Below are positions 1 to 11,046 of a DNA stretch of 59,864 nt, in pieces (positions within the stretch are counted from its first letter, which is position 1; every line of letters begins with the position of its first letter). A program made the translations under genes and the position numbers. Source of the DNA: Syntrophales bacterium (GTDB lineage: Bacteria; Desulfobacterota; Syntrophia; Syntrophales; JADFWA01); the NCBI GenBank assembly GCA_030655775.1, contig JAUSPI010000186.1, positions 1-59,864 on the forward strand. The letters run 5' to 3'. The notes beneath the pieces are model-generated. The model had not been told where the DNA came from and made no database searches. It worked only from the letters and a program-made list of their open reading frames with translations.

Positions 1-130
1 GGCGGGATATAGCCGGCTCAAGGGTAACGGTTTGTTGAATACGCTGAATCATTGTCGTCGAAAATTGTTGTCCATAAATTCGCATGATCGTAGTATGCCA
101 TGCATTACCCCCGGTGTCAAGTGTGTATTA

Positions 131-232
131 AGACCAGCCACAGGGCGGGGCTTCCCGGTAAGGAATAATTTAATTATATTGCGCCCCTTGACCCGCCTAC
201 AAGGCGGGGCTTGCGGGGTGCGCTCCCGGTCA
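131..232 (+). repeat. Family C two-hairpin GC-rich intergenic element, copy C1 (left end degenerate)
   Basis: Aligns by eye with 13025-13137, 44454-44563 (rc), 53439-53630 and 59474-59549. Reads cacagggcggggcttcccggtaaggaa, AT-rich spacer, tatattgcgcccctt.accccgc.tacaaggcggggcttgcgggtgcgctcccggtca. Confidence 0.7.
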
Positions 233-269
233 AATCTTGATGCGCTCTCAGAGTCCTGTTTCTCAAAAC

Positions 270-1475
270 TCAAGCTTTTTTGATGACCAAAGCACTGTTA
301 TGGCCACCGAAACCGAAGTTTTCCACCACTACCGTATCTATAGAACATGTCTTCCCCTTTCGAACAAAGTTAATCCCTGGATGGCAGGGATCGTCTAAGT
401 TTCTTACCTCGGGGAGATAATCGTTTTGCATGCAGATAAGAGAGATGGCCAGCTCCAGAGCGCCACAGGCAGCCGATATATGCCCGATCCATGATTTCAG
501 CGCAATGACGCAAGGGGTGTGTCGATCATAGATGCGATTTATCATATTCGCTTCCATTGCATCATTGAGAAGCGTACCGGTTCCATGAGCAGAGACAACA
601 TCAACCTGATTGGGGGAAATTCCCGCCTCATGAAATGCCGTACGTACCGCCGTTTCTCCCCATTTTCCATCCGGGTCCGGAGCGGTCATGGCGTGACCAT
701 CAATCGAGCTCCCGAAACCAGAGATTTCACCATACATTTTTACTTCGCGTCTTTGTGCGTGGCCCATCTCTTCAAGGAGAAAAAAAGCACCTCCCTCCCC
801 GGGAACAAACCCGGCTCTTTTACTGTCAAAGGGCCGGCTTGCACTTTCAGGATCACCATCTCCGGCAAAAAGAGCATACGCTTTTTTGTAGGCGAGGAGT
901 CCTCCAGAACTTAAACGGGAATCACCTCCACCGGCAAATGCCAGATCCAGGTACCCATCTTTTATCTTTCGGAAGGCCTCACCTATGGCCTGCAGCGAAG
1001 CAGCACACGCAGCGGTTGATACAATGTTCTCTCCGTGAATTCCTGTTAATCTGGCAATAGAAGAAGCGGCAGTATTCGGGAGAAACTTCAAAATCCAGAG
1101 TGCCATAAGATCCTTCCGGTCCAGTTTTCCTTCCTGGATTTCAGGAAACTCCCCACCGATGTCGAGGTTGGGACCGGCTCCCGTGAACAGACCGGCCTTC
1201 CCAAGCAGTTCTTCGTCGATTCCTGCGTTTTTCACGGCCTCCATGGCCGATGCCGTTGAGAACTGCGCCCCCCTGTTCAGATAACGTCTGTCTTTAAATG
1301 GGCCGGTAAATTTTTTGATATCAAAGTTCCCTACGGGGCATGTAACCACACTGTCATCGAAAGAGGATCTTCCAAACGCAACTTTTCCGTTCTTCAGATT
1401 GTCAATGATCTGCCCCGGTGTAAAACCGAGAGAAGAAATGACTCCGATCGATGTAATGACAACTCTTCTCGCCAT
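270..1475 (-). CDS. beta-ketoacyl-ACP synthase, KAS I/II (FabB/FabF) family, biotin-cluster paralog
   Basis: 401-aa ORF with a thiolase-fold condensing enzyme and Cys-His-His motifs (STAACAAS, SAHGTGT, IGHISAACG). Its start lies 3 nt after the stop of the upstream ORF. Confidence 0.9.
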   Translation of the reverse strand: MARRVVITSIGVISSLGFTPGQIIDNLKNGKVAFGRSSFDDSVVTCPVGNFDIKKFTGPFKDRRYLNRGAQFSTASAMEAVKNAGIDEELLGKAGLFTGAGPNLDIGGEFPEIQEGKLDRKDLMALWILKFLPNTAASSIARLTGIHGENIVSTAACAASLQAIGEAFRKIKDGYLDLAFAGGGDSRLSSGGLLAYKKAYALFAGDGDPESASRPFDSKRAGFVPGEGGAFFLLEEMGHAQRREVKMYGEISGFGSSIDGHAMTAPDPDGKWGETAVRTAFHEAGISPNQVDVVSAHGTGTLLNDAMEANMINRIYDRHTPCVIALKSWIGHISAACGALELAISLICMQNDYLPEVRNLDDPCHPGINFVRKGKTCSIDTVVVENFGFGGHNSALVIKKA

Positions 1476-1477
1476 TC

Positions 1478-2122
1478 TTAAATCTCACGACAGATATCGG
1501 CAACGTTTATTCTTTCAGGTGCATCCGGTTTTTCATCCGGGAAGCCAACGGTAACAAAGCATTTAATCTTTACGTCCTCTATTCCAAGGATATTTTCCAC
1601 ATCCCGGACAAATGTAAAAGGTGCCGTCATGATACACGTACCAAGACCAAGCTCTTCCCCTTTGAGGAGAAATCCCTTTACGGCGAGGCCCACTGTGATA
1701 TCTATATCGGTATCACCTCTGCCAACTTTTTTATTTATCCCGGTCCGGGGCAATTTCCCTGAAGAACCCCGCTCTGGAGAAACCGCCCCCACAGCAAAAA
1801 GGACAGGTGCATCAAACATGAATTTCGAGAATCGCCAGTACATATTGATCCGGTTTTTCAGTTTATTCGGAGTGCTGCTTTTCTGTGCGCTTTGCAAACG
1901 TCTCTTTTGCCCATTAGCCATAGCCCGGTAAAGATTATCCCTGCTTTCGGGGGAGACAATTTTGATAAATCTAACCGGACGGCTGTTTTTGGGAGAAGGT
2001 GCCATCGCGGCGTAGCGAATCATGCTATTGATCCAATCCTCTGGGGGAACATCAGTTTTATATTTTCTTATACTTCTTCTCTTGTTAATAAGCTCATCTA
2101 AATGTGACATCACATCACCCAT
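1478..2122 (-). CDS. nitroreductase-fold flavoprotein
   Basis: 214-aa ORF with the N-terminal RRSIRKY motif typical of the nitroreductase family. Tightly packed upstream of the KAS gene. Start could be M1 (2122) or M5 (2110). Confidence 0.8.
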   Translation of the reverse strand: MGDVMSHLDELINKRRSIRKYKTDVPPEDWINSMIRYAAMAPSPKNSRPVRFIKIVSPESRDNLYRAMANGQKRRLQSAQKSSTPNKLKNRINMYWRFSKFMFDAPVLFAVGAVSPERGSSGKLPRTGINKKVGRGDTDIDITVGLAVKGFLLKGEELGLGTCIMTAPFTFVRDVENILGIEDVKIKCFVTVGFPDEKPDAPERINVADICREI

Positions 2123-2150
2123 AAAATGAATTCAAGCTAACAACTCTTCT

Positions 2151-2295
2151 CGTCATTCTGAACTGAACAGCGAGCACATTATTCTTCGAATTACTTCGTT
2201 CCCCGCTGCTTGCGGCGGGGTTAGCGAGCGAATAAAAAATAAATTTTTTCCTTTACAGTCGGAGATTCCCAGCAACTTGTTGCGGGGAGCTTCAA
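2151..2295 (+). repeat. Family D two-hairpin element, copy D1 (intercistronic, between ACP and nitroreductase genes)
   Basis: Near-identical to 52290-52415: gaactgaacagcgagcaca..tccccgctgcttgc.gcggggttagcgagcgaataaaa...cagtcggagattccc.gca.cttg.tgcggggagcttcaa. D1 carries an extra 20 nt (attattcttcgaattacttcgt). Confidence 0.8.
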
Positions 2296-2312
2296 TTTAT
2301 TTCAGAATCTCA

Positions 2313-2678
2313 TCATTCACTCCGCCAGGCTACATAACTGATAAGGTCTTTAACCTTGAGCGTGGGACCACCTTCGAGATCCGACATGATTTCTTCCACC
2401 CTGCTTTTGGTGAGGAACGGAAACTTATGCACAAGGTATTGCACGGTATCGCTCCCCTGCTCTTCTGCCTCGGTCATGTGAAACCTGAATGTCCTGAGAA
2501 AGAGTTCATCGTCTTTAACTTCTATATTAAATTTTGAGTTCAACGCCACCGCCAGCTCTAAAAGATCAATCGATTCTGCATCCAGATCTCTTATAACGTA
2601 GGTTTCAGGTGTAATCTCCTGATTTTCTATATCGAGGATTTCTATCAAAATTTTCTTTATTTGTTCTAAAATATCCAT
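2313..2678 (-). CDS. acyl carrier protein-like protein with C-terminal extension
   Basis: 121-aa ORF. The N-terminal ~75 aa look like an ACP, with a candidate phosphopantetheine serine in LDAESIDLLEL. About 40 extra C-terminal residues. Confidence 0.75.
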   Translation of the reverse strand: MDILEQIKKILIEILDIENQEITPETYVIRDLDAESIDLLELAVALNSKFNIEVKDDELFLRTFRFHMTEAEEQGSDTVQYLVHKFPFLTKSRVEEIMSDLEGGPTLKVKDLISYVAWRSE

Positions 2679-2735
2679 TTATACCTCTTAGATATCCCAC
2701 CCTGGGGGGAATTTACTTGCCTGATTGGGAGCGCT

Positions 2736-2764
2736 TTTATATCAAAGGGAGGAATATATGTCAA
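2736..2764 (-). promoter_or_regulatory. putative sigma70-type promoter of the ACP-nitroreductase-KAS unit
   Basis: On the minus strand, TTGACA (rc of 2759-2764), a 17-nt spacer, then TATAAA (rc of 2736-2741). The -35 overlaps the BirA operator half-site. Confidence 0.5.
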
Positions 2765-2788
2765 CCACAATTAAATTTCAGGTTGACA
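2759..2788. promoter_or_regulatory. second BirA-type operator (TGTCAACC-N14-GGTTGACA)
   Basis: Perfect inverted repeat TGTCAACC (2759-2766) / GGTTGACA (2781-2788). Lies in a 64-nt cassette (2727-2790) that is 59/64 identical to 8642-8705. Confidence 0.7.
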
Positions 2789-2871
2789 ATTGGGGTTAGC
2801 ATGGAATGATAATTGACTATGGTATTTGACCATGGTACACTTCTGCTATATTAATGGGAGGACATGTTTTT

Positions 2872-3120
2872 ATGAAAGAAGAGACTATCGCGATATCAAA
2901 ATTCAAGGCCACATGCCTGGCGGTTTTGAACAAGGTGAAACAAACAGGACAACCTGTTCTAGTTACGCGCCGGGGAGAACCTATTGCCCTTATTGAACCA
3001 CCCCCAAAACCACAGATGCGTGAGTCGTGGCTGGGAATGTTCCGTTCGAGGGGAACGATCACGGGAGATATTGTATCTCCTGCAGTCAGTTCACGTGAAT
3101 GGGAGGCTCTGGGGCAATGA
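2872..3120 (+). CDS. type II antitoxin, Phd/YefM family
   Basis: Starts MKEETIAISKFKATCLAVLNKVKQTGQPVLVTRRGEPIALIEPP. GGGAGG SD lies 9 nt upstream of the ATG at 2872. Its stop overlaps the toxin start (ATGA). Confidence 0.8.
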   Translation: MKEETIAISKFKATCLAVLNKVKQTGQPVLVTRRGEPIALIEPPPKPQMRESWLGMFRSRGTITGDIVSPAVSSREWEALGQ

Positions 3121-3533
3121 TGAAACTGTTACTGGATACACATATTTTATTGTGGAGCCTTCTGGATCCAGCACGCCTCGCCATGGAAGTTTCAGCAGAG
3201 TTGGAGAATCCCACCAATGAACTGTGGCTTTCCCCGATCAGCACATGGGAAATAATAATACTTGCTGAAAGGGGGCGCATTGTTTTGGATGCTGAACCGG
3301 CACACTGGATGAGGGATGTATTCAAAGCAATCGCTTTTAAAGAAGCTCCTGTTAATCATGAAGTCGCCATTCAGAGCCGCATGATTGATTTTGCCCAGGA
3401 GGACCCGGCTGACCGATTTTTGGTTGCAACGGCCATTGTCTATGATCTCACCCTGGTCACCGCTGACAGGTGGCTTATTGATTCTAAAGCGTGTTCTATA
3501 CTGCCAAATAACACAAGTTCACAAACAGGTTAA
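3117..3533 (+). CDS. vapC: type II toxin, PIN-domain VapC family
   Basis: MMKLLLDTHILLW... PIN-domain N-terminus. ATGA overlap with the antitoxin stop at 3117-3120. Confidence 0.85.
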   Translation: MMKLLLDTHILLWSLLDPARLAMEVSAELENPTNELWLSPISTWEIIILAERGRIVLDAEPAHWMRDVFKAIAFKEAPVNHEVAIQSRMIDFAQEDPADRFLVATAIVYDLTLVTADRWLIDSKACSILPNNTSSQTG

Positions 3534-3544
3534 GATGAAACTCA

Positions 3545-3705
3545 AAAAGGTTAGAACTTCTTCCTTTCTGGTTTGCAGGCACTTCTTCGCCCGTCCCGCG
3601 TCAACATAACCGGGGCGCAGCGTCACGATGGTGATTCCGCGTCCTCCCAATTCCTTTTCCAGATTTCCGTTCGCTTCGCCGGAATTTTGGCTGGTTTTTG
3701 GGGGC
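3545..3705 (-). pseudogene. relic of an SDR gene (homologous to codons ~190-240 of the SDR at 5140-5883)
   Basis: Translation ..LGGRGITIVTLRPGYVDAGRAKKCLQTRKEEVL matches ..LGERGITTVTLRPGYIDAGRGKTYMQTREEEVL of the intact SDR. The nucleotide alignment is visible but diverged. No N-terminal part or proper C-terminus. Confidence 0.55.
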
Positions 3706-3764
3706 AAGGAAACCAACAGGTTAACCCCTTTTTCGACAACATTGTATACCATTACACAAATGTC

Positions 3765-3793
3765 TTGACAATTATGCAGAGGTATGCATAATA
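3765..3793 (+). promoter_or_regulatory. putative promoter of the ATPase gene (leaderless arrangement)
   Basis: TTGACA (3765-3770), 17-nt spacer, TGc-ATAATA (3788-3793). The ATG at 3800 is 7 nt after the -10 and has no SD. Confidence 0.5.
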
Positions 3794-3799
3794 GGCCAC

Positions 3800-5038
3800 A
3801 TGGAAAGAATTGCAAGCACTTACATATTTGATCCTAAGATGACTGCCGGGAAGATGATCTTCCTGTCAGGTCCCAGGCAGGTCGGTAAGACCACCTTTGC
3901 GCAGATGTGGTTGAAGAATACCGGCGCCGAGGGTACATACTTTAACTGGGATGACCCGACGGTAATGGTGGAGTATAAGAGAAATCCGCTTTATTTCAAA
4001 AGTATCATAGAGGAAAGGTTTGGAAGAGAGCCCGTTCCGATTGTCTTCGACGAGATACATAAACATAAACAGTGGCGGAACATACTAAAAGGATTTTTTG
4101 ATATCAACAAAGAGAGAATGCAACTGCTTGTGACGGGTTCGGGTCGGTTCGATACCTATCAGAGATCCGGTGACTCCCTGTTGGGGCGGTACTTTTCATA
4201 TCAAATGTTTCCCATGGGTATTCCAGAGGCAGTCGGTGATTTTTCATATGTTATCAATAACGGTGACGTCTATGCCGACGGCGATAAACTGGCTAAAATC
4301 TCAAGGGACGCGATTGCAGAAGGGGCAGAGGAAGGATCCGAACTACTGTGGAAATTCGGCGGTTTCCCGGAACCTTTTTTAAGGGGGGAGGAAGAATTTC
4401 ACCGTCGATGGCAGAAAGATTACAAAACATTGATCGCACGGGAAGAGGTGAGAGATCTCTCGCAGATCCAGGATATCAGGGGTGTTGAAACGCTGGTAGA
4501 GGTGCTTCCTGCGAAAGTTGGTTCACCATTAAGTATAAAATCGCTCAGCGATGATCTGGGATATAACCAGAGGACAATAGCCCGATGGATCGAGGTGCTG
4601 AGTGCGTTATATCTTGTGTTTACTCTACGCCCCTGGCACAAAAAAATTGCCAGGGCAATAAAAAAAGAACCCAAGCTATACTTTTACGATTGGTCCCTCC
4701 TGTCTGACCGGGGGAATCGATTTGAAAACTTTGTTGCGGTAAGCCTTATCAGAATGGCGGCAAGGTTAACCGAAAAAGGTCTTGGTGAGTTCGAAATCAA
4801 CTATATACGGGACCGTGAAAAGAGGGAAGTGGACTTTGTGCTGGTACGGGACGGCAGCCCGATTTGTCTCTTCGAAACAAAAGAAGGCGGCAGGGACATC
4901 AGCCGCCACGGAAGGCATTTTAGTGAAAAACTGGGAATCCCGTACTACCAGATTGTCCGCCGGGCGGAAAGAGTAGAAGCGTTTCCAGGAAACTGTTTTA
5001 TTGTTCCGGCAACAAATTTTCTGATGCTGACGGGATAA
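3800..5038 (+). CDS. AAA-type ATPase with DUF4143-like C-terminal domain (COG1373-type)
   Basis: 412-aa ORF with Walker A GPRQVGKTT and Walker B IVFDEIH. The architecture is typical of stand-alone accessory ATPases. Confidence 0.85.
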   Translation: MERIASTYIFDPKMTAGKMIFLSGPRQVGKTTFAQMWLKNTGAEGTYFNWDDPTVMVEYKRNPLYFKSIIEERFGREPVPIVFDEIHKHKQWRNILKGFFDINKERMQLLVTGSGRFDTYQRSGDSLLGRYFSYQMFPMGIPEAVGDFSYVINNGDVYADGDKLAKISRDAIAEGAEEGSELLWKFGGFPEPFLRGEEEFHRRWQKDYKTLIAREEVRDLSQIQDIRGVETLVEVLPAKVGSPLSIKSLSDDLGYNQRTIARWIEVLSALYLVFTLRPWHKKIARAIKKEPKLYFYDWSLLSDRGNRFENFVAVSLIRMAARLTEKGLGEFEINYIRDREKREVDFVLVRDGSPICLFETKEGGRDISRHGRHFSEKLGIPYYQIVRRAERVEAFPGNCFIVPATNFLMLTG

Positions 5039-5115
5039 TATAGCACAGAGGTAAACCCTAAATTTCCATACAGCATGGCTAAAGCCCTGCCCCACATCTG
5101 CCCTTGTGTCTTAGT

Positions 5116-5135
5116 CTATCGGCTTTAGCCGATAG
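5116..5135. terminator. short hairpin between convergent ATPase and SDR genes
   Basis: ctatcggc-ttta-gccgatag is an 8-bp perfect stem. There is no clear U-tract. Confidence 0.3.
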
Positions 5136-5139
5136 CAGA

Positions 5140-5883
5140 TTACTTCCCCGCGGTCAGCCCGCCATCCAGGACAATTTCGGTGGCGTTAAAGCCCGCGGCG
5201 CTGTCTGAAAGGAGAAAGAGGATGGTTTCCGCCACCTCGGCTTCGGTAATGGCCCTTTTTATAGGTACCATCCTGAGAACTTCTTCCTCTCTTGTCTGCA
5301 TATATGTTTTTCCCCGCCCCGCGTCGATATAACCGGGGCGCAGCGTCACAGTGGTAATCCCGCGTTCTCCCAATTCCACCCCCAGGTTTTTGTAAAGCGC
5401 CTCCGAGGCCAGTTTGGCGGCCGCGTAAAAACCCTGACCGGGATTGGGCCTGTCCGCCGCCGATGAGGAAACAAAAACAAGACGCCCCCTTTTCTTTTTC
5501 AGCATCGCCCTTGACGCCCTTTTCAGGATTTCCGCGCGAAAAGAAATATTTTCAGCAAAATAACGGCGGACGCTGTCCTCATCGGCGGATGCTATATAGC
5601 TTTCAAAATCGCTTTGGGCGAAATCTACCAGAAAATCGATGTCGTCGCCGATCTGCTCAAACAGGGAATCCAGGGAATCACGGTCGCCGAGGTTGAGATA
5701 AAAATATCTGTATTTTCCCGCAAATGCCCCCAATTTTTCCGATATGTACTTCTGTCCCTTTTCGTTTCTGTAGGTCAGGATCGGAGAAAGAGACGCTTTA
5801 ATCACGCATTCGGCAAGAGCTATGGCAAGATCGCAACTGCCGCCCAGGATCAGGGTGCTATTGCCTGAAAAATTGAGTTTCAT
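5140..5883 (-). CDS. short-chain dehydrogenase/reductase (3-oxoacyl-ACP reductase-like)
   Basis: SDR catalytic YAAAK and upstream SSSA. Start chosen at MKLNFSG (5883) because it forms an ATGA overlap with the upstream hot-dog ORF stop. Confidence 0.85.
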   Translation of the reverse strand: MKLNFSGNSTLILGGSCDLAIALAECVIKASLSPILTYRNEKGQKYISEKLGAFAGKYRYFYLNLGDRDSLDSLFEQIGDDIDFLVDFAQSDFESYIASADEDSVRRYFAENISFRAEILKRASRAMLKKKRGRLVFVSSSAADRPNPGQGFYAAAKLASEALYKNLGVELGERGITTVTLRPGYIDAGRGKTYMQTREEEVLRMVPIKRAITEAEVAETILFLLSDSAAGFNATEIVLDGGLTAGK

Positions 5884-6164
5884 CTTTTCAAAACCCCTGT
5901 GACAAGCGCTTTGTCTCCCCGGTAAAGCCGGCATTTCAGCCGATCCGGCAAAAGCTCGATGCTGAAGGAGTACTCACCGGGAGGAACGAATTCTCGAAAC
6001 CTGAAATTTTCTATCGTGCAACCATCTGCCGTAAACCCGAGCGTTTTTCCTGCTTCTGAAAATGCATGAACTATCATACTACCCGGAACTACAGGACTTC
6101 CAGGGAAATGATCTTCGTAGATTCTGTCGGCCGGATCGAAGTAAAAAGTTCCTTTTGTTTGCAT
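5880..6164 (-). CDS. small FabA/FabZ-like hot-dog fold dehydratase
   Basis: 94-aa ORF carrying the DHFPGSPVVPGSMIVHAF motif (FabZ HFPxxPVxPG signature). Translationally coupled to the SDR. Confidence 0.75.
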   Translation of the reverse strand: MQTKGTFYFDPADRIYEDHFPGSPVVPGSMIVHAFSEAGKTLGFTADGCTIENFRFREFVPPGEYSFSIELLPDRLKCRLYRGDKALVTGVLKR

Positions 6165-6177
6165 GGGATGTCCTCAT

Positions 6178-6253
6178 CAGTAAGCAGTAAGCAGTAGGCA
6201 CTTTTTTTACTCCTTACTTCTTGCTGCCTACTGCTTACTCCTTACTGCCTACT
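6178..6253. repeat. Family F word-periodic palindrome (agtaagc/agtaggc heptads)
   Basis: agtaagcagtaggca (6186-6200) pairs perfectly with tgcctactgcttact (6225-6239). The arms extend as heptad words, and the bioA stop codon (6249-6251) lies inside the right arm. Confidence 0.75.
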
Positions 6254-7619
6254 CTTCCGTAACCGCCCTGATCGATCTGTATACAGCATCACAGAGCCTG
6301 TCCAGTTCATCTGTTGAGATGCTGAGCGGGGGCATCAGGATAATCACATCTCCGAGCGGGCGTATTATTACACCGTGCTTTCTTGCTTCCATTATTACAC
6401 TGTGTCCTATTCTATCTTTTGGGGGATAAGGTTCTTTCGATTCTTTATCTGCTACAAGCTCTATTCCCACCATAAATCCCCGCTGACGTATTTCGCCCAC
6501 GTGATCCAGTGATACGAATGGCTTCAAATTGTTTGTCAGGTGTTCGATTTTCTCCCGAAGGTTTTCCAGTGTCCGCTCCTCTTCAAAGATCTCCAGATTG
6601 GCCAGAGAAACTGCGCAGGCCAGGGGATTCCCCGTATAAGTATGTCCATGAAAAAAGGTCTTGAATTCGTCATAATCCGCTAAAAATCCGCGGTAGATAT
6701 CTTCGCTGGTGAGAGTTGCCGCCAGAGGCATATACCCCCCGGAAATACCCTTGGCTACGGCCATTATATCCGGCGTCACCCCTTCATGTTCACACGCAAA
6801 CATCTTACCTGTCCTCCCGAAACCAACTGCTACTTCATCGGCAATCATGATGACATGGTGTTTTGTACAGAGTTCCCTCACTTTTTCAAGGTAACCCAGG
6901 GGCTGAACCAGCATACCCGCGGCCCCCTGAACCAGAGGTTCAATCACAAAGGCGGCGGCCTCATGGCAGTGTGCCTCTATCGTCTCTTCCAGATTTTTGA
7001 AACATTCAAAATCACAGGAATCCTGAGTCTTTCCGAATGGACATCGATAACAGTACGGCGATTCGACATGGATGGAGGGAAAGAGAAGGGATTTATATGT
7101 AGCGTGGAAGAGACCGATCCCCCCCACACTAACGGAACCTATGGTATCTCCATGATACGCATTGGTAAGCGAGATAAATCTGGTCTTACCTGGATCGCCC
7201 GTATCTGCCTGCTGATGATACTGAAAGGCCATCTTGAGGGCAATCTCAACAGCAGTGGAACCGTTGTCTGAATAGAAGACCTTAGTCAGACCTTCCGGTG
7301 CAATTTCGATCAGTTTTTTCGCGCACTCGATGGCCGGAGGATTGGATAGTCCCAGCAGGGTTGAATGAGCAATCGTGCTGATCTGTTTTTTGAGGGCGTT
7401 ATCCAATTTTTCTTTTCTGTGGCCGTGTACGTTGGTCCAGAGTGAGGAAACGCCGTCTATGTATTCATTTCCGTAGGTATCCTTTAAGATGCATCCATTC
7501 CCCTCTTCGATTATGAGAGGGGTTTCCTTCACATAGTCCTGCATCTGGGTAAATGGGTGCCAGATATATTTTTTGTCATCAATTTCCAGTTGTCTGTTCC
7601 GCTCGGTCGTTGCTTCCAT
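6249..7619 (-). CDS. bioA: adenosylmethionine-8-amino-7-oxononanoate aminotransferase
   Basis: 456-aa class III aminotransferase with the BioA N-terminal YIWHPFTQM motif. Lies immediately downstream of bioB. Confidence 0.93.
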   Translation of the reverse strand: MEATTERNRQLEIDDKKYIWHPFTQMQDYVKETPLIIEEGNGCILKDTYGNEYIDGVSSLWTNVHGHRKEKLDNALKKQISTIAHSTLLGLSNPPAIECAKKLIEIAPEGLTKVFYSDNGSTAVEIALKMAFQYHQQADTGDPGKTRFISLTNAYHGDTIGSVSVGGIGLFHATYKSLLFPSIHVESPYCYRCPFGKTQDSCDFECFKNLEETIEAHCHEAAAFVIEPLVQGAAGMLVQPLGYLEKVRELCTKHHVIMIADEVAVGFGRTGKMFACEHEGVTPDIMAVAKGISGGYMPLAATLTSEDIYRGFLADYDEFKTFFHGHTYTGNPLACAVSLANLEIFEEERTLENLREKIEHLTNNLKPFVSLDHVGEIRQRGFMVGIELVADKESKEPYPPKDRIGHSVIMEARKHGVIIRPLGDVIILMPPLSISTDELDRLCDAVYRSIRAVTEE

Positions 7620-7620
7620 T

Positions 7621-8598
7621 TTAAATAAGCCCCATCTCCTGGATCATATTTGTATCCATTTCGGCATTTCTACCCTGTGTGGTAAGGTAGTTTCCTATCA
7701 TCAATCCGTTTGCACCCGCCATAAATGTCCATGACTGATAATCTTGGAGAGTTACCTCTCTGCCACCGCATATGGTTATATCCTTTCCGGGGTTTATAAA
7801 CCTGAAAAGGGCAATGCACTTCAATGCTTCCATAGGTGACAGCAAAGGCATACTTTCCATTCTGGTGCCGGCGACGGGATTGAGAAAATTTATCGGTACT
7901 ATGTCGACGTCCAGCTCTTTGAGTGTAAAGGCCAGTTCGATACGCTGCTCCCACGTCTCACCCAGCCCTAAAATACCCCCCGAGCAGGCCTTGAGACCGG
8001 TTGATTGGGCAAATTTGACCGTCTGAATATCTTCATCATAGTCATGGGTTGTACAAATCTGGTCAAAATAGCTCCGTGCGGTCTCAAGGTTGTGATGATA
8101 GGTTGTGATTCCGCCCTCTTTCAACCGTCTTGCCATCGGCTCGGTCAGCATGCCCAGTGAGGCACAAATCATAAGGTCGGTCTTCTCCTTAATGTTTGAC
8201 GCTGCCCGGCTGATCGTTTTAATTTCTTCGTCTGTAAGCATGGTCCCGCTGGTTACCATCGAGTATTTTGTAGCACCCGCTTCGTACATCCGAAGAGCAT
8301 TATCTACGAGCTCTTCTTCACTCAATAAGGGATACGTTTCAATTTCGGTTTTATGATGTGCCGATTGGGCACAGAAGGCGCAGTTTTCAGGGCAAAAACC
8401 GGATTTGGCGTTGATTATGGAGCATGTAAAAACACTGTTTTTTTTGTATTTATTCCTGATCTTATTGGCACACATTATCAGGTCGATGGTATCATCGACA
8501 GGAAGTACGGAAAGTTCACAAGCCTCTTCATAAGAGATGGAATTTCCGGCATCTTCCATAATTTTTTCAGTTATGGTAATTATCTTTTTGTTGAACAT
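7621..8598 (-). CDS. bioB: biotin synthase (radical SAM)
   Basis: 325 aa with the CPENCAFCAQS (CxxxCxxC) cluster motif. Conserved BioB length and context. Confidence 0.95.
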   Translation of the reverse strand: MFNKKIITITEKIMEDAGNSISYEEACELSVLPVDDTIDLIMCANKIRNKYKKNSVFTCSIINAKSGFCPENCAFCAQSAHHKTEIETYPLLSEEELVDNALRMYEAGATKYSMVTSGTMLTDEEIKTISRAASNIKEKTDLMICASLGMLTEPMARRLKEGGITTYHHNLETARSYFDQICTTHDYDEDIQTVKFAQSTGLKACSGGILGLGETWEQRIELAFTLKELDVDIVPINFLNPVAGTRMESMPLLSPMEALKCIALFRFINPGKDITICGGREVTLQDYQSWTFMAGANGLMIGNYLTTQGRNAEMDTNMIQEMGLI

Positions 8599-8650
8599 GG
8601 TTTTTATCCTTTAGTTGTTTGTATTTACATCTTCCGACTTCGGGAGCGCT

Positions 8651-8679
8651 CTTATATCAAAGAGAGGAATATATGTCAA
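8651..8679 (-). promoter_or_regulatory. putative bioB promoter
   Basis: On the minus strand, TTGACA (rc of 8674-8679), a 17-nt spacer, then TATAAG (rc of 8651-8656). The -35 lies inside the operator half-site. Confidence 0.5.
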
Positions 8680-8703
8680 CCACAATTAAATTATGGGTTG
8701 ACA
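8674..8703. promoter_or_regulatory. BirA-type operator TGTCAACC-N14-GGTTGACA between bioB and birA
   Basis: Perfect 8-bp inverted repeat with a 14-nt AT-rich spacer. Same class as the E. coli bioO half-sites (TGTAAACC / GGTTTACA, recalled from memory). Confidence 0.75.
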
Positions 8704-8731
8704 ATGAAGTCCGCACGTGGTGTATTGGGGC

Positions 8732-9721
8732 ATGACTACAAAAGAGCAATTGCTATCATACCTGAAAAAGGAGATGGGAAACTGGGTTTCAGGCGAGTCG
8801 CTGAGCAACAAGCTGGCGGTCAGCCGAGCTGCCGTTTGGAAACATATCGGCAAATTGAAAGCAGATGGCTATATTATAGAGTCCTCCCCTAAAAAAGGGT
8901 ATCTTTTGAGTAAGATTTCCGATCTGCTATTACCCGCTGAGATTGAGGAAGGACTTGATACCAGAGTCTTCGGGAAAGGAAATATTGTCTACCTTAATGA
9001 AATAGATTCAACCAATATAAAGGCAAAAGAGTTGGCAGCTATGGGCGCCCCTGAAGGGACGGTAGTCGTCGCGGAGAAACAGACGAACGGAAGGGGAAGA
9101 AGAGGTCGAAGCTGGTTTTCACCTTCGGGTGATGGAATCTATGCTTCCCTTATCTTGAGGCCGGTCATGTCTCCGATCGAGTTACCGAGAATCACCCTGA
9201 TGACAGCGGTTGCGGTATCAGATGCCCTGCTTTCACTTACGCAATTAAAAATCAGGATCAAGTGGCCCAATGATATCCTCGTGAACGGGAAAAAGATAGC
9301 CGGTATCCTTACAGAGATCAGTACAGAAATGGACGAGGTGGACTATATCATCGTTGGTCTCGGACTGAATGTTAACACGCCATCTGAAAGTTTTCCCGAG
9401 GAGATAAGGGAAGAGGCCACGTCAATTTCAACAGAGATGGGAAGACACTTTCCCAGAGCGCCGATTGTCCGTGAATACCTTCGATGGTATGAAAAGTATT
9501 ACGAGATGTTTAAAAAAAGAGGGTTTGAATCCATTATGCACCGGTGGAAGGAACTTGCCGATATCACCGGAGAGCAGATTATGGTTGACGTGCTCGGTGA
9601 GAAGTATGTCGGGGAAGTCCTCGATGTTGGCAATGATGGAGTCTTGCTCCTGATGGATAAAGAGGGAAATACTCACAGGATATTTTCGGGGGACGTGCAA
9701 ATAATAGGGGCACGCCCGTGA
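8732..9721 (+). CDS. birA: bifunctional biotin-protein ligase / bio operon repressor
   Basis: N-terminal winged HTH (LSNKLAVSRAAVWKHIGKLKADGY), a ligase core with GRGRRGR, and a C-terminal SH3-like domain. The ATG at 8732 is preferred over the GTG at 8717. Confidence 0.9.
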   Translation: MTTKEQLLSYLKKEMGNWVSGESLSNKLAVSRAAVWKHIGKLKADGYIIESSPKKGYLLSKISDLLLPAEIEEGLDTRVFGKGNIVYLNEIDSTNIKAKELAAMGAPEGTVVVAEKQTNGRGRRGRSWFSPSGDGIYASLILRPVMSPIELPRITLMTAVAVSDALLSLTQLKIRIKWPNDILVNGKKIAGILTEISTEMDEVDYIIVGLGLNVNTPSESFPEEIREEATSISTEMGRHFPRAPIVREYLRWYEKYYEMFKKRGFESIMHRWKELADITGEQIMVDVLGEKYVGEVLDVGNDGVLLLMDKEGNTHRIFSGDVQIIGARP

Positions 9722-9903
9722 GATCCACTCCGTTGAACAAAGGCTCTCCAAAAAAGAAAAGGTGGCAGACGATAATTTCTCCGTAAGAATAGCCATCGTC
9801 CCAGTTTTTTAAAGATTGCCTCATCACTTATCGCAATGACAATACCGGCATTATGCAAGGCCTTCAGTTTCTGACACCAAATACCCTACCCTCTTTAAAT
9901 CCC

Positions 9904-9932
9904 TTGACAAAAAATCTTTAAAGCCATATGGT
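9904..9932 (+). promoter_or_regulatory. putative promoter upstream of ychF
   Basis: TTGACA (9904-9909), 17-nt spacer, TATGGT (9927-9932). An AAGGAG SD precedes the ATG at 9979. Confidence 0.45.
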
Positions 9933-9978
9933 GCCGGTCTTTCGAACAACCGATACATAAACAAGGAGACCACGTCAT

Positions 9979-11046
9979 ATGAAAATTGGACTGATCGGCT
10001 TGCCCAATTCGGGGAAGACGACAATTTTTAACGCGCTTACGAAAATGGAGGCCCACGTCACCACATACTCCAACGCAAAGGCGGAACCGAATGTGGCCGT
10101 CGTCAAGGTAAACGATGATCGCCTGATTCGCCTCACCGATATGTACAAGCCGAAGAAGACCACCGGCGCTACAATTGAAATGATCGATTTCCCCAGCTTG
10201 AAGGAAGGTTCCGCAAAGAACGGTTCTTTTTCAGGAAACTCCATGGAATGGATCAAAAACACAGATGCCCTGGCCCTGGTGGTGCGCAACTTTAATGATG
10301 ACCTGGCGGGAGATCCCACGCCTCTTGGCGACATTGACTAAATCGATACGGAACTTCTCCTCGCCGATCTTATACTCGTGGAAAACAGGCTTGAGAGGCT
10401 TGAATGGTTCCAGAAACGGGGGCAAAAAACGAATGCGCTTGCACTGGAAGAAAGAGCTCTCCGAAAAGTCGCGGAGCAACTCAACAACAATCAACCCATC
10501 CGGAACCTCGATCTTGATGAAGATGAAGAGAAAACGATACGCGGTTTTCAATTTCTCACGAAAAAACCGTTTCTTGTTATCCTGAACTCGGATGAAACCG
10601 TTTTCGGACAGAATAAGAATATCATGGGCGAAATCGAATCGCGGTACAACGTCATTGAATTCGCCGGCAGCTTCGAAACGGAATTGACTTGCCTCAACGA
10701 TGAAGAAGCGAAAATCTTTATGGAAGATATCGGCATCAAAAAGTCTGCCCGGGAGAGACTGACACAATTCGCGTACAGGACGCTCGGGTACGTAAGCTTT
10801 TTTACCATCGGTGAAGATGAAGTACGGGCATGGAGTATTCATGGTGGAGATACGGCGGTAAATGCGGCCGGCGCCATTCATTCCGATCTCGCGCGGGGAT
10901 TTATCCGCGCGGAATGTTTTACATACGATGAATTAATCGAATGCGGGTCGGAAAAAGGGGTGCGGGCGAACGGCAGCTTCCGGCTGGAAGGAAAAGATTA
11001 CATCGTCCGGGACGGCGATGTTCTGAGCATTAGATTCAGCGTCTGA
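9979..11046 (+). pseudogene. ychF: YchF/OLA1-family ribosome-binding ATPase interrupted by one in-frame TAA (10339-10341)
   Basis: ORFs 9979-10341 and 10378-11046 are in the same frame. Reading through gives PLGDID*IDTELLLADLILVENRLERLE, colinear with YchF. Has the P-loop GLPNSGKTT and a C-terminal TGS-like GFIRAE...[11 protein letters not shown]. Confidence 0.75.

Follow-up and report, generated by a model that had tools for sequence, protein, structure and literature searches.

The promoter/operator unit that heads a long biotin operon is present twice in the window (the whole stretch of DNA analysed, 59,864 nt). The unit at 8642-8705 (copy 2) is probably the ancestral one, and the unit at 2727-2790 (copy 1) would keep the cut-off half of the operon under biotin/BirA control, as judged from the sequence. 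The unit has been duplicated; copy 1 stands in a derived position, is restricted to split loci and has kept its functional positions.

Organisation of the biotin locus

Genes were assigned from profile searches and the two cassettes from reading of the sequence, as follows.

270-1475, minus strand: FabF-like KAS II beta-ketoacyl-ACP synthase (KAS; Pfam ketoacyl-synt N and C; NCBIfam fabF, 284 bits, below the equivalog cut-off)
1478-2122, minus strand: nitroreductase-family protein (Pfam PF00881, E 1.5e-27)
2313-2678, minus strand: specialised ACP, 121 aa (Pfam PP-binding; NCBIfam ACP models over residues 2-58)
2727-2790, minus strand: cassette copy 1 (derived), predicted promoter and BirA-type operator facing ACP
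2854-3120, likely start 2872, plus strand: Phd/YefM-type antitoxin (Pfam PF02604)
3099-3533, plus strand: PIN-domain toxin (Pfam PF01850)
3553-3666, minus strand: SDR gene relic, codons 183-220 only (28/38 residues identical to the SDR 5140-5934)
3800-5038, plus strand: AAA_14/DUF4143 ATPase (Pfam), with its own promoter-like site at 3765-3792 (scan 11/12)
5140-5934, minus strand: FabG-like SDR (Pfam and NCBIfam profile matches)
5880-6164, minus strand: FabZ/FabA-like dehydratase (Pfam and NCBIfam profile matches)
6249-7619, minus strand: bioA (NCBIfam TIGR00508, 566 bits, over cut-off)
7621-8598, minus strand: bioB (NCBIfam TIGR00433, 406 bits, over cut-off)
8642-8705, minus strand: cassette copy 2 (ancestral), predicted bioB promoter and BirA-type operator in the bioB-birA divergent spacer
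8717-9721, likely start ATG 8732, plus strand: birA, bifunctional biotin ligase/repressor (Pfam HTH_11 and BPL_LplA_LipB)

The two bio halves are separated by 2.46 kb of opposite-strand cargo (the Phd/PIN pair, the SDR relic and the AAA ATPase). SDR and dehydratase are the final genes of the promoter-proximal half; ACP is the first gene downstream of copy 1, and KAS is the final on-contig gene of the cut-off half. KAS orthologues are syntenic in every relative examined, nitroreductase orthologues were found in the bio clusters of 18 of the 61 genomes searched (this genome, G000, counted; 42-84% identity), and ACP can be aligned in relatives over its full 121 aa. The C-terminal extension of ACP (about 45 aa) is conserved in length across relatives and lies outside the span of the ACP models, which cover residues 2-58 only. 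BirA carries an N-terminal HTH_11 domain (E 2.2e-16) and scores over the cut-off of NCBIfam birA_ligase (206 bits); the bifunctional models gave 217 bits, below their cut-offs, and the TIGR00122 repressor domain gave 48.6 bits against a cut-off of 70.

The bioF and bioD genes of this assembly are on contig C43. Together with a 152-aa ORF they lie at the end of that contig, behind MITE-like repeats and a two-copy repeat with inverted-match ends, and are thus separated from KAS by repeats and a contig break; in the same-genus genome G001 the 152-aa ORF, bioF and bioD directly follow KAS (L116). In the present genome a two-copy IS-like element looks to lie between KAS and these three genes and to break the assembly there. 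The 152-aa ORF (G000:C43:35048-35503; L023 6530-6988, minus strand) is conserved in the KAS-bioF interval of most of the 80 clusters surveyed; it gave no match in Pfam and NCBIfam searches and could correspond to the second hot-dog protein reported from D. vulgaris.

Repeats of other kinds are frequent. REP/MITE-like families (~50-140 nt, dozens of copies) are abundant in the window and in the genome (2200-2295, 5096-5158, 13024-13140, 19834-19976, 27861-28285, 31274-31659, 49228-49568 and 52321-52415), with one pair at the ACP-nitroreductase interval and one directly past the SDR stop; repeats have also inserted at these junctions in G003 and in G034, a genome of another family. The contig start (1-145) matches the beginning of C147 at 99% identity, as does the end of C43 (35845-36001) that of C44 at 98%; the contig start and the C43 end have an inverted match of 31-46 nt in common.

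The cut-off genes belong to biotin synthesis

The original prediction had the "FAS-like" genes being wired into the BirA regulon. They are not newcomers to it: together, ACP, nitroreductase, KAS, SDR and dehydratase make up the pimeloyl-ACP branch of biotin synthesis in its known, Desulfovibrio-type form. Homologues of ACP, ketoacyl synthase, ketoacyl reductase and dehydratase are part of the extended bio operon described for Desulfovibrio (PMC545781), and in D. vulgaris the corresponding genes are required for growth without biotin according to transposon mutant fitness (Trotter et al. 2023, PMC10102598). The same article reports that the nitroreductase too is needed by D. vulgaris without biotin, and that nitroreductase-like genes lie inside the bio clusters of Syntrophobacter and Desulfobacter (PMC10102598). 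In the genome analysed here a dedicated ACP, KAS, 3-oxoacyl reductase and FabZ-like dehydratase cluster with bioA/B/F/D. The assembly is 98.98% complete; searches of it with BioC TIGR02072 and BioH TIGR01738 gave no match over cut-off, and BioW PF03744 gave no match. The cut-off genes are therefore the sole recognised pimelate route. Since they already belonged to a putatively BirA-controlled operon, the proposal that ACP-nitroreductase-KAS had "gained, or kept" BirA control is narrowed to the second verb: control would have been kept and not gained.

The 64-nt cassette and its repeat

The two cassettes match at 59 of 64 bases in an ungapped alignment (repeat family D13, 92%). When 2600-5200 was compared by blastn with the whole assembly (3,041,141 bases in 276 contigs), 8642-8705 was the sole further cassette copy (E 6.6e-19). 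The predicted identity was thus confirmed. The operator, the -35 TTGACA and a -10-like element are common to both copies in the same orientation, as had been proposed, with the refinement that the promoter reads on the minus strand. The right edge of identity falls directly past GACAAT, i.e. past the operator, and the left edge past GGGAGCGC, where residual similarity into the 5' leaders is weak; the unit is discrete, as expected from the earlier reading, with this weak similarity on the leader side. Copy 1 of G000 and copy 1 of G001 share a somewhat longer unit (2715-2795). An Rfam search of 1-10000 (E <=0.1) gave 0 matches, and the repeat corresponds to no known RNA element.

Each copy contains a perfect TGTCAACC-N14-GGTTGACA operator (2759-2788 in copy 1, 8674-8703 in copy 2), and these are the only sites with <=2 mismatches to this motif genome-wide. 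The reversed pattern, used as a control at the same threshold, gave 0 sites genome-wide. At <=3 mismatches, shuffled sequences gave a mean of 0.21 sites and reached 2 sites in 4 of 100 shuffles, and a separate scan returned many 3-mismatch hits. Since the loose motif is not rare, the evidential weight lies on two perfect sites inside a 64-nt repeat. The next-best match (C231:13727-13757) has 1 mismatch and an N15 spacer and is apparently within coding sequence.

Promoter elements were placed by reading of the sequence, as follows.

Copy 1, minus strand: operator 2759-2788, -35 2759-2764, TG 2743-2744, -10 TATAAA 2736-2741
Copy 2, minus strand: operator 8674-8703, -35 8674-8679, -10 TATAAG 8651-8656

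On the minus strand the cassette consists of the distal operator half, N14, the proximal half GGTTGACA, a 17-nt spacer, the -10 and nine invariant bases. The last six bases of the proximal half are the consensus -35 TTGACA (reverse complement of 2759-2764 and 8674-8679), and the 17-nt spacer carries TG at -15/-14 in both copies. The -35/17 nt/-10 positions are kept in 8/8 cassette versions compared. This promoter is absent from the output of the consensus scanner, which accepts only T as the final -10 base; the -10 here ends with A or G. This clearly weakens the promoter assignment, for which the TG of an extended -10 may compensate. Identity ends within a few bases of the predicted transcript start, so that the repeated unit corresponds to the operator plus core promoter. 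The operator lies 76 nt upstream of bioB in copy 2 and 81 nt upstream of the cluster ACP in copy 1. Copy 1 comprises the leftward promoter only, without the birA-side -10 region.

The other faces of the two operators were also read. At copy 1 the promoter scanner lists a rightward TTGACA-16-AATGAT (2783-2810): in 2783-2813 the distal half of the operator gives a TTGACA that faces Phd/PIN, with AATGAT and a TG 16 nt further on. If the distal half acts as a -35 towards the toxin-antitoxin genes, their transcription could be biotin-responsive. Phd/PIN also retains an upstream region of its own (from 2808), found in G001 too, where no cassette is nearby. At copy 2 (8698-8734) the birA ATG at 8732 is 28 nt past the operator; many Syntrophales loci have 27-30 nt here. 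If the distal half-site serves as -35, transcription of birA would begin at or beside the ATG, and the gene may then lack a leader and be autoregulated.

Proposed control of the split operon

The ancestral operon would have read bioB-bioA-dehydratase-SDR-ACP-nitroreductase-KAS-152-aa ORF-bioF-bioD, headed by copy 2. Its putative sigma-70-type promoter reads on the minus strand, with the inner part of the promoter-proximal BirA operator half as -35; because the -35 lies inside the operator half, holo-BirA bound to the inverted repeat would occlude RNA polymerase. At the SDR-ACP junction the operon would have been interrupted by opposite-strand accessory genes. Copy 1, which would begin with the distal operator half and end near the transcript start, sits directly upstream of ACP, so the cut-off half would have its own promoter under the same biotin/BirA control. 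This half would consist of ACP-nitroreductase-KAS and, by synteny, also of the 152-aa ORF, bioF and bioD; no minus-strand terminator-like site was found in the ACP-nitroreductase interval. BirA binding and promoter activity, like the way in which the copy was made, are what we infer from these arrangements.

Conservation of the cassette was compared in 8 distinct versions (three of copy 1, five of copy 2), among which 16/64 positions vary, distributed as follows.

Operator N14 spacer: 7 positions
Promoter spacer: 6 positions
Half-site free base: 1 position
n of TGn: 1 position
Last -10 base: 1 position

No variation occurs among the 8 versions in the -35, in the TG, in the specified bases of the half-sites or in the -10 up to its fifth base. 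The leader beside copy 1 is unalignable between G000 and G001. That the functional positions are invariant next to a diverged leader is the main reason for viewing copy 1 as a working BirA-controlled promoter, and it indicates that copy 1 is under the same selection as copy 2.

Relatives without cargo show a single cassette

In G002, G003 and G004, genomes of the same genus, birA and one operator are followed by bioB-bioA-(dehydratase)-SDR-ACP-nitroreductase-KAS, and the cluster is cargo-free in all three. The unsplit metagenome contigs L050, L052 and L053 likewise carry one operator and no cargo (3/3). The SDR-ACP gap is 22-26 nt in the unsplit relatives, and in G004 the operon goes on with the 152-aa ORF, bioF and bioD. 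For a wider survey, 80 Syntrophales/Desulfobacterales loci were collected, in 70 of which ACP is beside a nitroreductase gene; the 66 of these with at least 400 nt upstream of ACP were scanned for the operator at <=2 mismatches. No operator was found within 400 nt upstream of ACP in any of the 66 at that threshold. ACP and the preceding gene are <=100 nt apart in 56/65 loci, and the largest gap (484 nt, in L059) holds REP-like elements without an operator. At the cluster head the operator is present in 47/80 wider loci and in every same-genus locus that covers the region; the position of copy 2, in the bioB-birA interval, is conserved order-wide.

The check proposed with the original prediction, whether insert-free relatives have one operator or two, was therefore answered in favour of one. 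With unsplit relatives and survey loci alike free of an operator before ACP, the comparison of sequences identifies the single operon with one cassette as ancestral and the copy before ACP as derived.

Other split loci carry different cargo

Besides G000, copy 1 was found in G001 and in the metagenome contig L051 only, both with an insertion at the same SDR-ACP junction. The gene orders are as follows.

G001 (C65 = L048): ACP, cassette (operator at 747), ParE/Phd pair, DUF401, 310-aa ORF, Phd/PIN pair, then SDR-dehydratase-bioA-bioB, second operator (9000) and birA
L051: KAS-nitroreductase-ACP, cassette, DUF401
L049 (same contig-name series as L051): end of the 310-aa ORF, REP-like piece, SDR-bioA-bioB, operator, birA

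L049 and L051 are probably from the same population. Because the same architecture was recovered in two independent assemblies (G001 and L051), an assembly artefact was rejected. All three copy-1 versions have the same 12 nt at the ACP side of the 64-mer, a stretch foreign to the bioB leader, which favours copy 1 having arisen only once.

The cargo itself differs in all three split lineages. Neither a toxin-antitoxin pair nor the ATPase is present in L051/L049, the ATPase is absent from the SDR-ACP junction of G001 as well as of L051/L049, and a Pfam search of the G001 310-aa cargo ORF gave no match. The proposal that the TA/ATPase insert split an ancestral operon is upheld as regards the ancestral single operon, and the TA/ATPase as the original splitter is not established. 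Over 744 nt the Phd/PIN pair and G001:C65:4590-5333 share 94% identity, against ~82% for 4.6 kb of bio genes, and third-codon identity between G000 and G001 is 89-92% for Phd/PIN and 64-76% for the flanking bio genes. Similarity so far above that of the bio flanks points to a later lateral exchange; the Phd/PIN pair looks to have arrived in this way and need not be the original splitter.

The SDR relic (3553-3666) is 81% identical at the nucleotide level to the genome's own SDR and 73-77% to the SDR genes of relatives, and its protein is 74% identical to the SDR 5140-5934; no donor was found among its own and the relatives' SDR genes. The relic, which lies between PIN and the ATPase, records another rearrangement of this genome; in G001, PIN is directly adjoined by the 3' end of the intact SDR instead.

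Two further models, one for the insert and one for the origin of copy 1, were considered. A mobile repeat was rejected, the 2.46-kb insert being without another copy in the genome, apart from an ATPase paralogue on C99 (70% identical) and REP/MITE-like pieces at 5096-5158; no target-site duplication was seen by eye at the insert edges. Tandem duplication from SDR to cassette followed by deletion of the left copy would fit the position of copy 1, but it puts the SDR relic on the wrong side.

Alternative readings of copy 1

Similarity could in principle be the product of common constraint or chance on two separate BirA operators, with no duplication, since half-sites and promoter hexamers are constrained and would be alike anyway. 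It is the agreement at unconstrained positions that makes this hardly credible: 11/14 positions match in the operator spacer, 16/17 in the promoter spacer and all 9 nt past the -10. Such spacer identity, and a blastn E of 6.6e-19 in the whole genome, contradict convergence. A true copy might still be a functionless scar of rearrangement, such as a decayed tandem duplication, with ACP-KAS transcribed by read-through from bioB or from another promoter. The SDR relic at 3553-3666, a sign that the junction was rearranged more than once, and a -10 hexamer without its final T are in keeping with a scar. In three lineages, however, the half-site bases, the -35, the TG and 5/6 of the -10 bases have stayed intact beside non-coding DNA that can no longer be aligned, and a transcript reading through would run for 2.46 kb antisense to three cargo genes and face at least one strong promoter-like site of opposite direction. 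We regard a scar as improbable, and a functional copy 1 as the preferred reading.

History of the two copies

Mismatches between 64-mers were counted pairwise, as follows.

Copy 1 G000 and copy 1 G001: 3
Copy 1 G000 and copy 2 G000: 5
Copy 1 G001 and copy 2 G001: 11
Copy 2 G000 and copy 2 G001: 9
Copy 1 L051 and copy 2 L049: 6
Copy 1 L051 and copy 1 G001: 5
Copy 1 L051 and copy 1 G000: 8

Copy 1 does not come out as a clean clade among the cassette versions, so a single origin requires later recombination or gene conversion. Most economically, copy 1 would have arisen once from the bioB cassette, cassette and cargo would have been exchanged among lineages through recombination, and copy 1 would have been partly homogenised with copy 2; this history is read from only 16 informative sites. 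Tentatively, the SDR-ACP junction may be viewed as a landing pad for accessory genes, whose downstream edge is guarded by a portable cassette that arose once, has moved between species with cargo such as Phd/PIN and has been partly gene-converted with the resident bioB cassette.

Copy 1 of G000 may instead have been acquired, together with cargo, by recombination from a related lineage that was already split, the cassette travelling between species in a variable islet. We hold this possible but somewhat doubtful. The copy-1 versions of G000 and G001 differ at 3/64 positions and the Phd/PIN pairs are 94% identical, against ~82% for the bio flanks and 9/64 mismatches for copy 2, and the excess in third-codon identity of the toxin-antitoxin genes over the bio genes (89-92% and 64-76%) goes the same way. 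G001 also falls outside (G000, G002, G003, G004) in the KAS (support 99) and BioB (94) trees, the SDR tree being unresolved, and is the most distant by TypA (G000 is 92% identical to G002-G004 and 87% to G001). The locus has a mosaic history: BioA of G001 (L048 6584-7945) is 89.9% identical to that of G034 (L026) and 83% to those of same-genus genomes, and groups with G034 with support 100. Against import, copy 1 of G000 is nearest to its own copy 2 among the copy-2 versions (5 mismatches against 6-10), and its promoter spacer has a motif in common with copy 2 of G000 that occurs in no other copy 2; this closeness and the private motif fit a local origin, or a transfer out of the lineage and not into it. 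The small number of informative sites applies here too, and trees built from the genes of the locus do not stand for the species tree. Import touches the origin of copy 1 only and leaves the proposed function of the element, control of the cut-off half by BirA, unchanged.

Comparison with known systems

In Escherichia coli a single operator, bioO, serves the divergent bioA and bioBFCD promoters, and a bifunctional BirA with an N-terminal HTH represses through an inverted repeat that overlaps elements of both. The locus described here resembles bioO in its HTH-bearing BirA and, as predicted from sequence, in an inverted repeat that overlaps promoter elements; it is unlike bioO in that the -35 is supplied by one of the operator halves and the unit is present twice. 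That separate bio operons each have a BirA site of their own is a long-standing observation of comparative genomics. To our knowledge, the emergence of a new BirA site upon operon breakage is rarely visible.

The BirA signal quoted by Rodionov et al. 2004 (PMC545781) from Rodionov et al. 2002 is TTGTAAACC-N14/15-GGTTTACAA, with delta-proteobacterial sites of the TTGTcAACC-N14-GGTTgACAA type (PMC545781). Both cassette operators fit the inverted repeat TGTnAACC-N14/15-GGTTnACA perfectly, with N14. They are thus like the delta-proteobacterial/Desulfobacterota operators of that article, including the placement of a site between the divergent bio operon and birA, as in Desulfovibrio (PMC545781). 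Genomes with one or two BirA sites, according to the organisation of the bio operons, are also described there (PMC545781). Unlike the sites presented in that source, the second site here is visibly a paralogous copy, complete promoter and unconstrained spacers included, and the state before the split can be seen in sister genomes free of the insert.

The cluster resembles DVU2558-DVU2565 of D. vulgaris, where an ACP, a FabF-like KAS, a FabG-like reductase and FabZ-like dehydratase(s) stand beside bioA/B/F/D and birA, likewise without bioC or bioH (PMC10102598). It differs in that the nitroreductase is inside the cluster (in D. vulgaris, DVU1220 is apart from DVU2558-DVU2565; PMC10102598) and in that it has been cut in two and has a second promoter/operator.

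Splitting of operons by inserted genes is known as operon death by insertion. In the survey that attributed 11/66 dead operon pairs to it, co-expression was lower for split pairs than for pairs in intact operons (Price, Arkin, Alm 2006, PMC1480536). The present locus is similar, with an ancestral operon split by inserted genes and halves that remain near each other, and unlike the split pairs of that study in that the regulatory unit has been duplicated, which should preserve co-regulation. A literature search for promoter/operator duplication after an operon split found operon death by insertion and not this mechanism, which may still be published in sources beyond those covered.

The kind of regulation is known and no new regulatory mechanism is involved; the modestly new part is the clean before/after evidence for duplication of a whole unit. 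One genus holds both states, an intact ten-gene operon with one cassette and a split operon with a second cassette copied down to its spacers. The locus therefore offers a concrete, testable case of a regulon kept whole by duplicating the entire promoter/operator unit, in which an operon for an essential cofactor tolerates having toxin-antitoxin genes and other cargo turn over within it.
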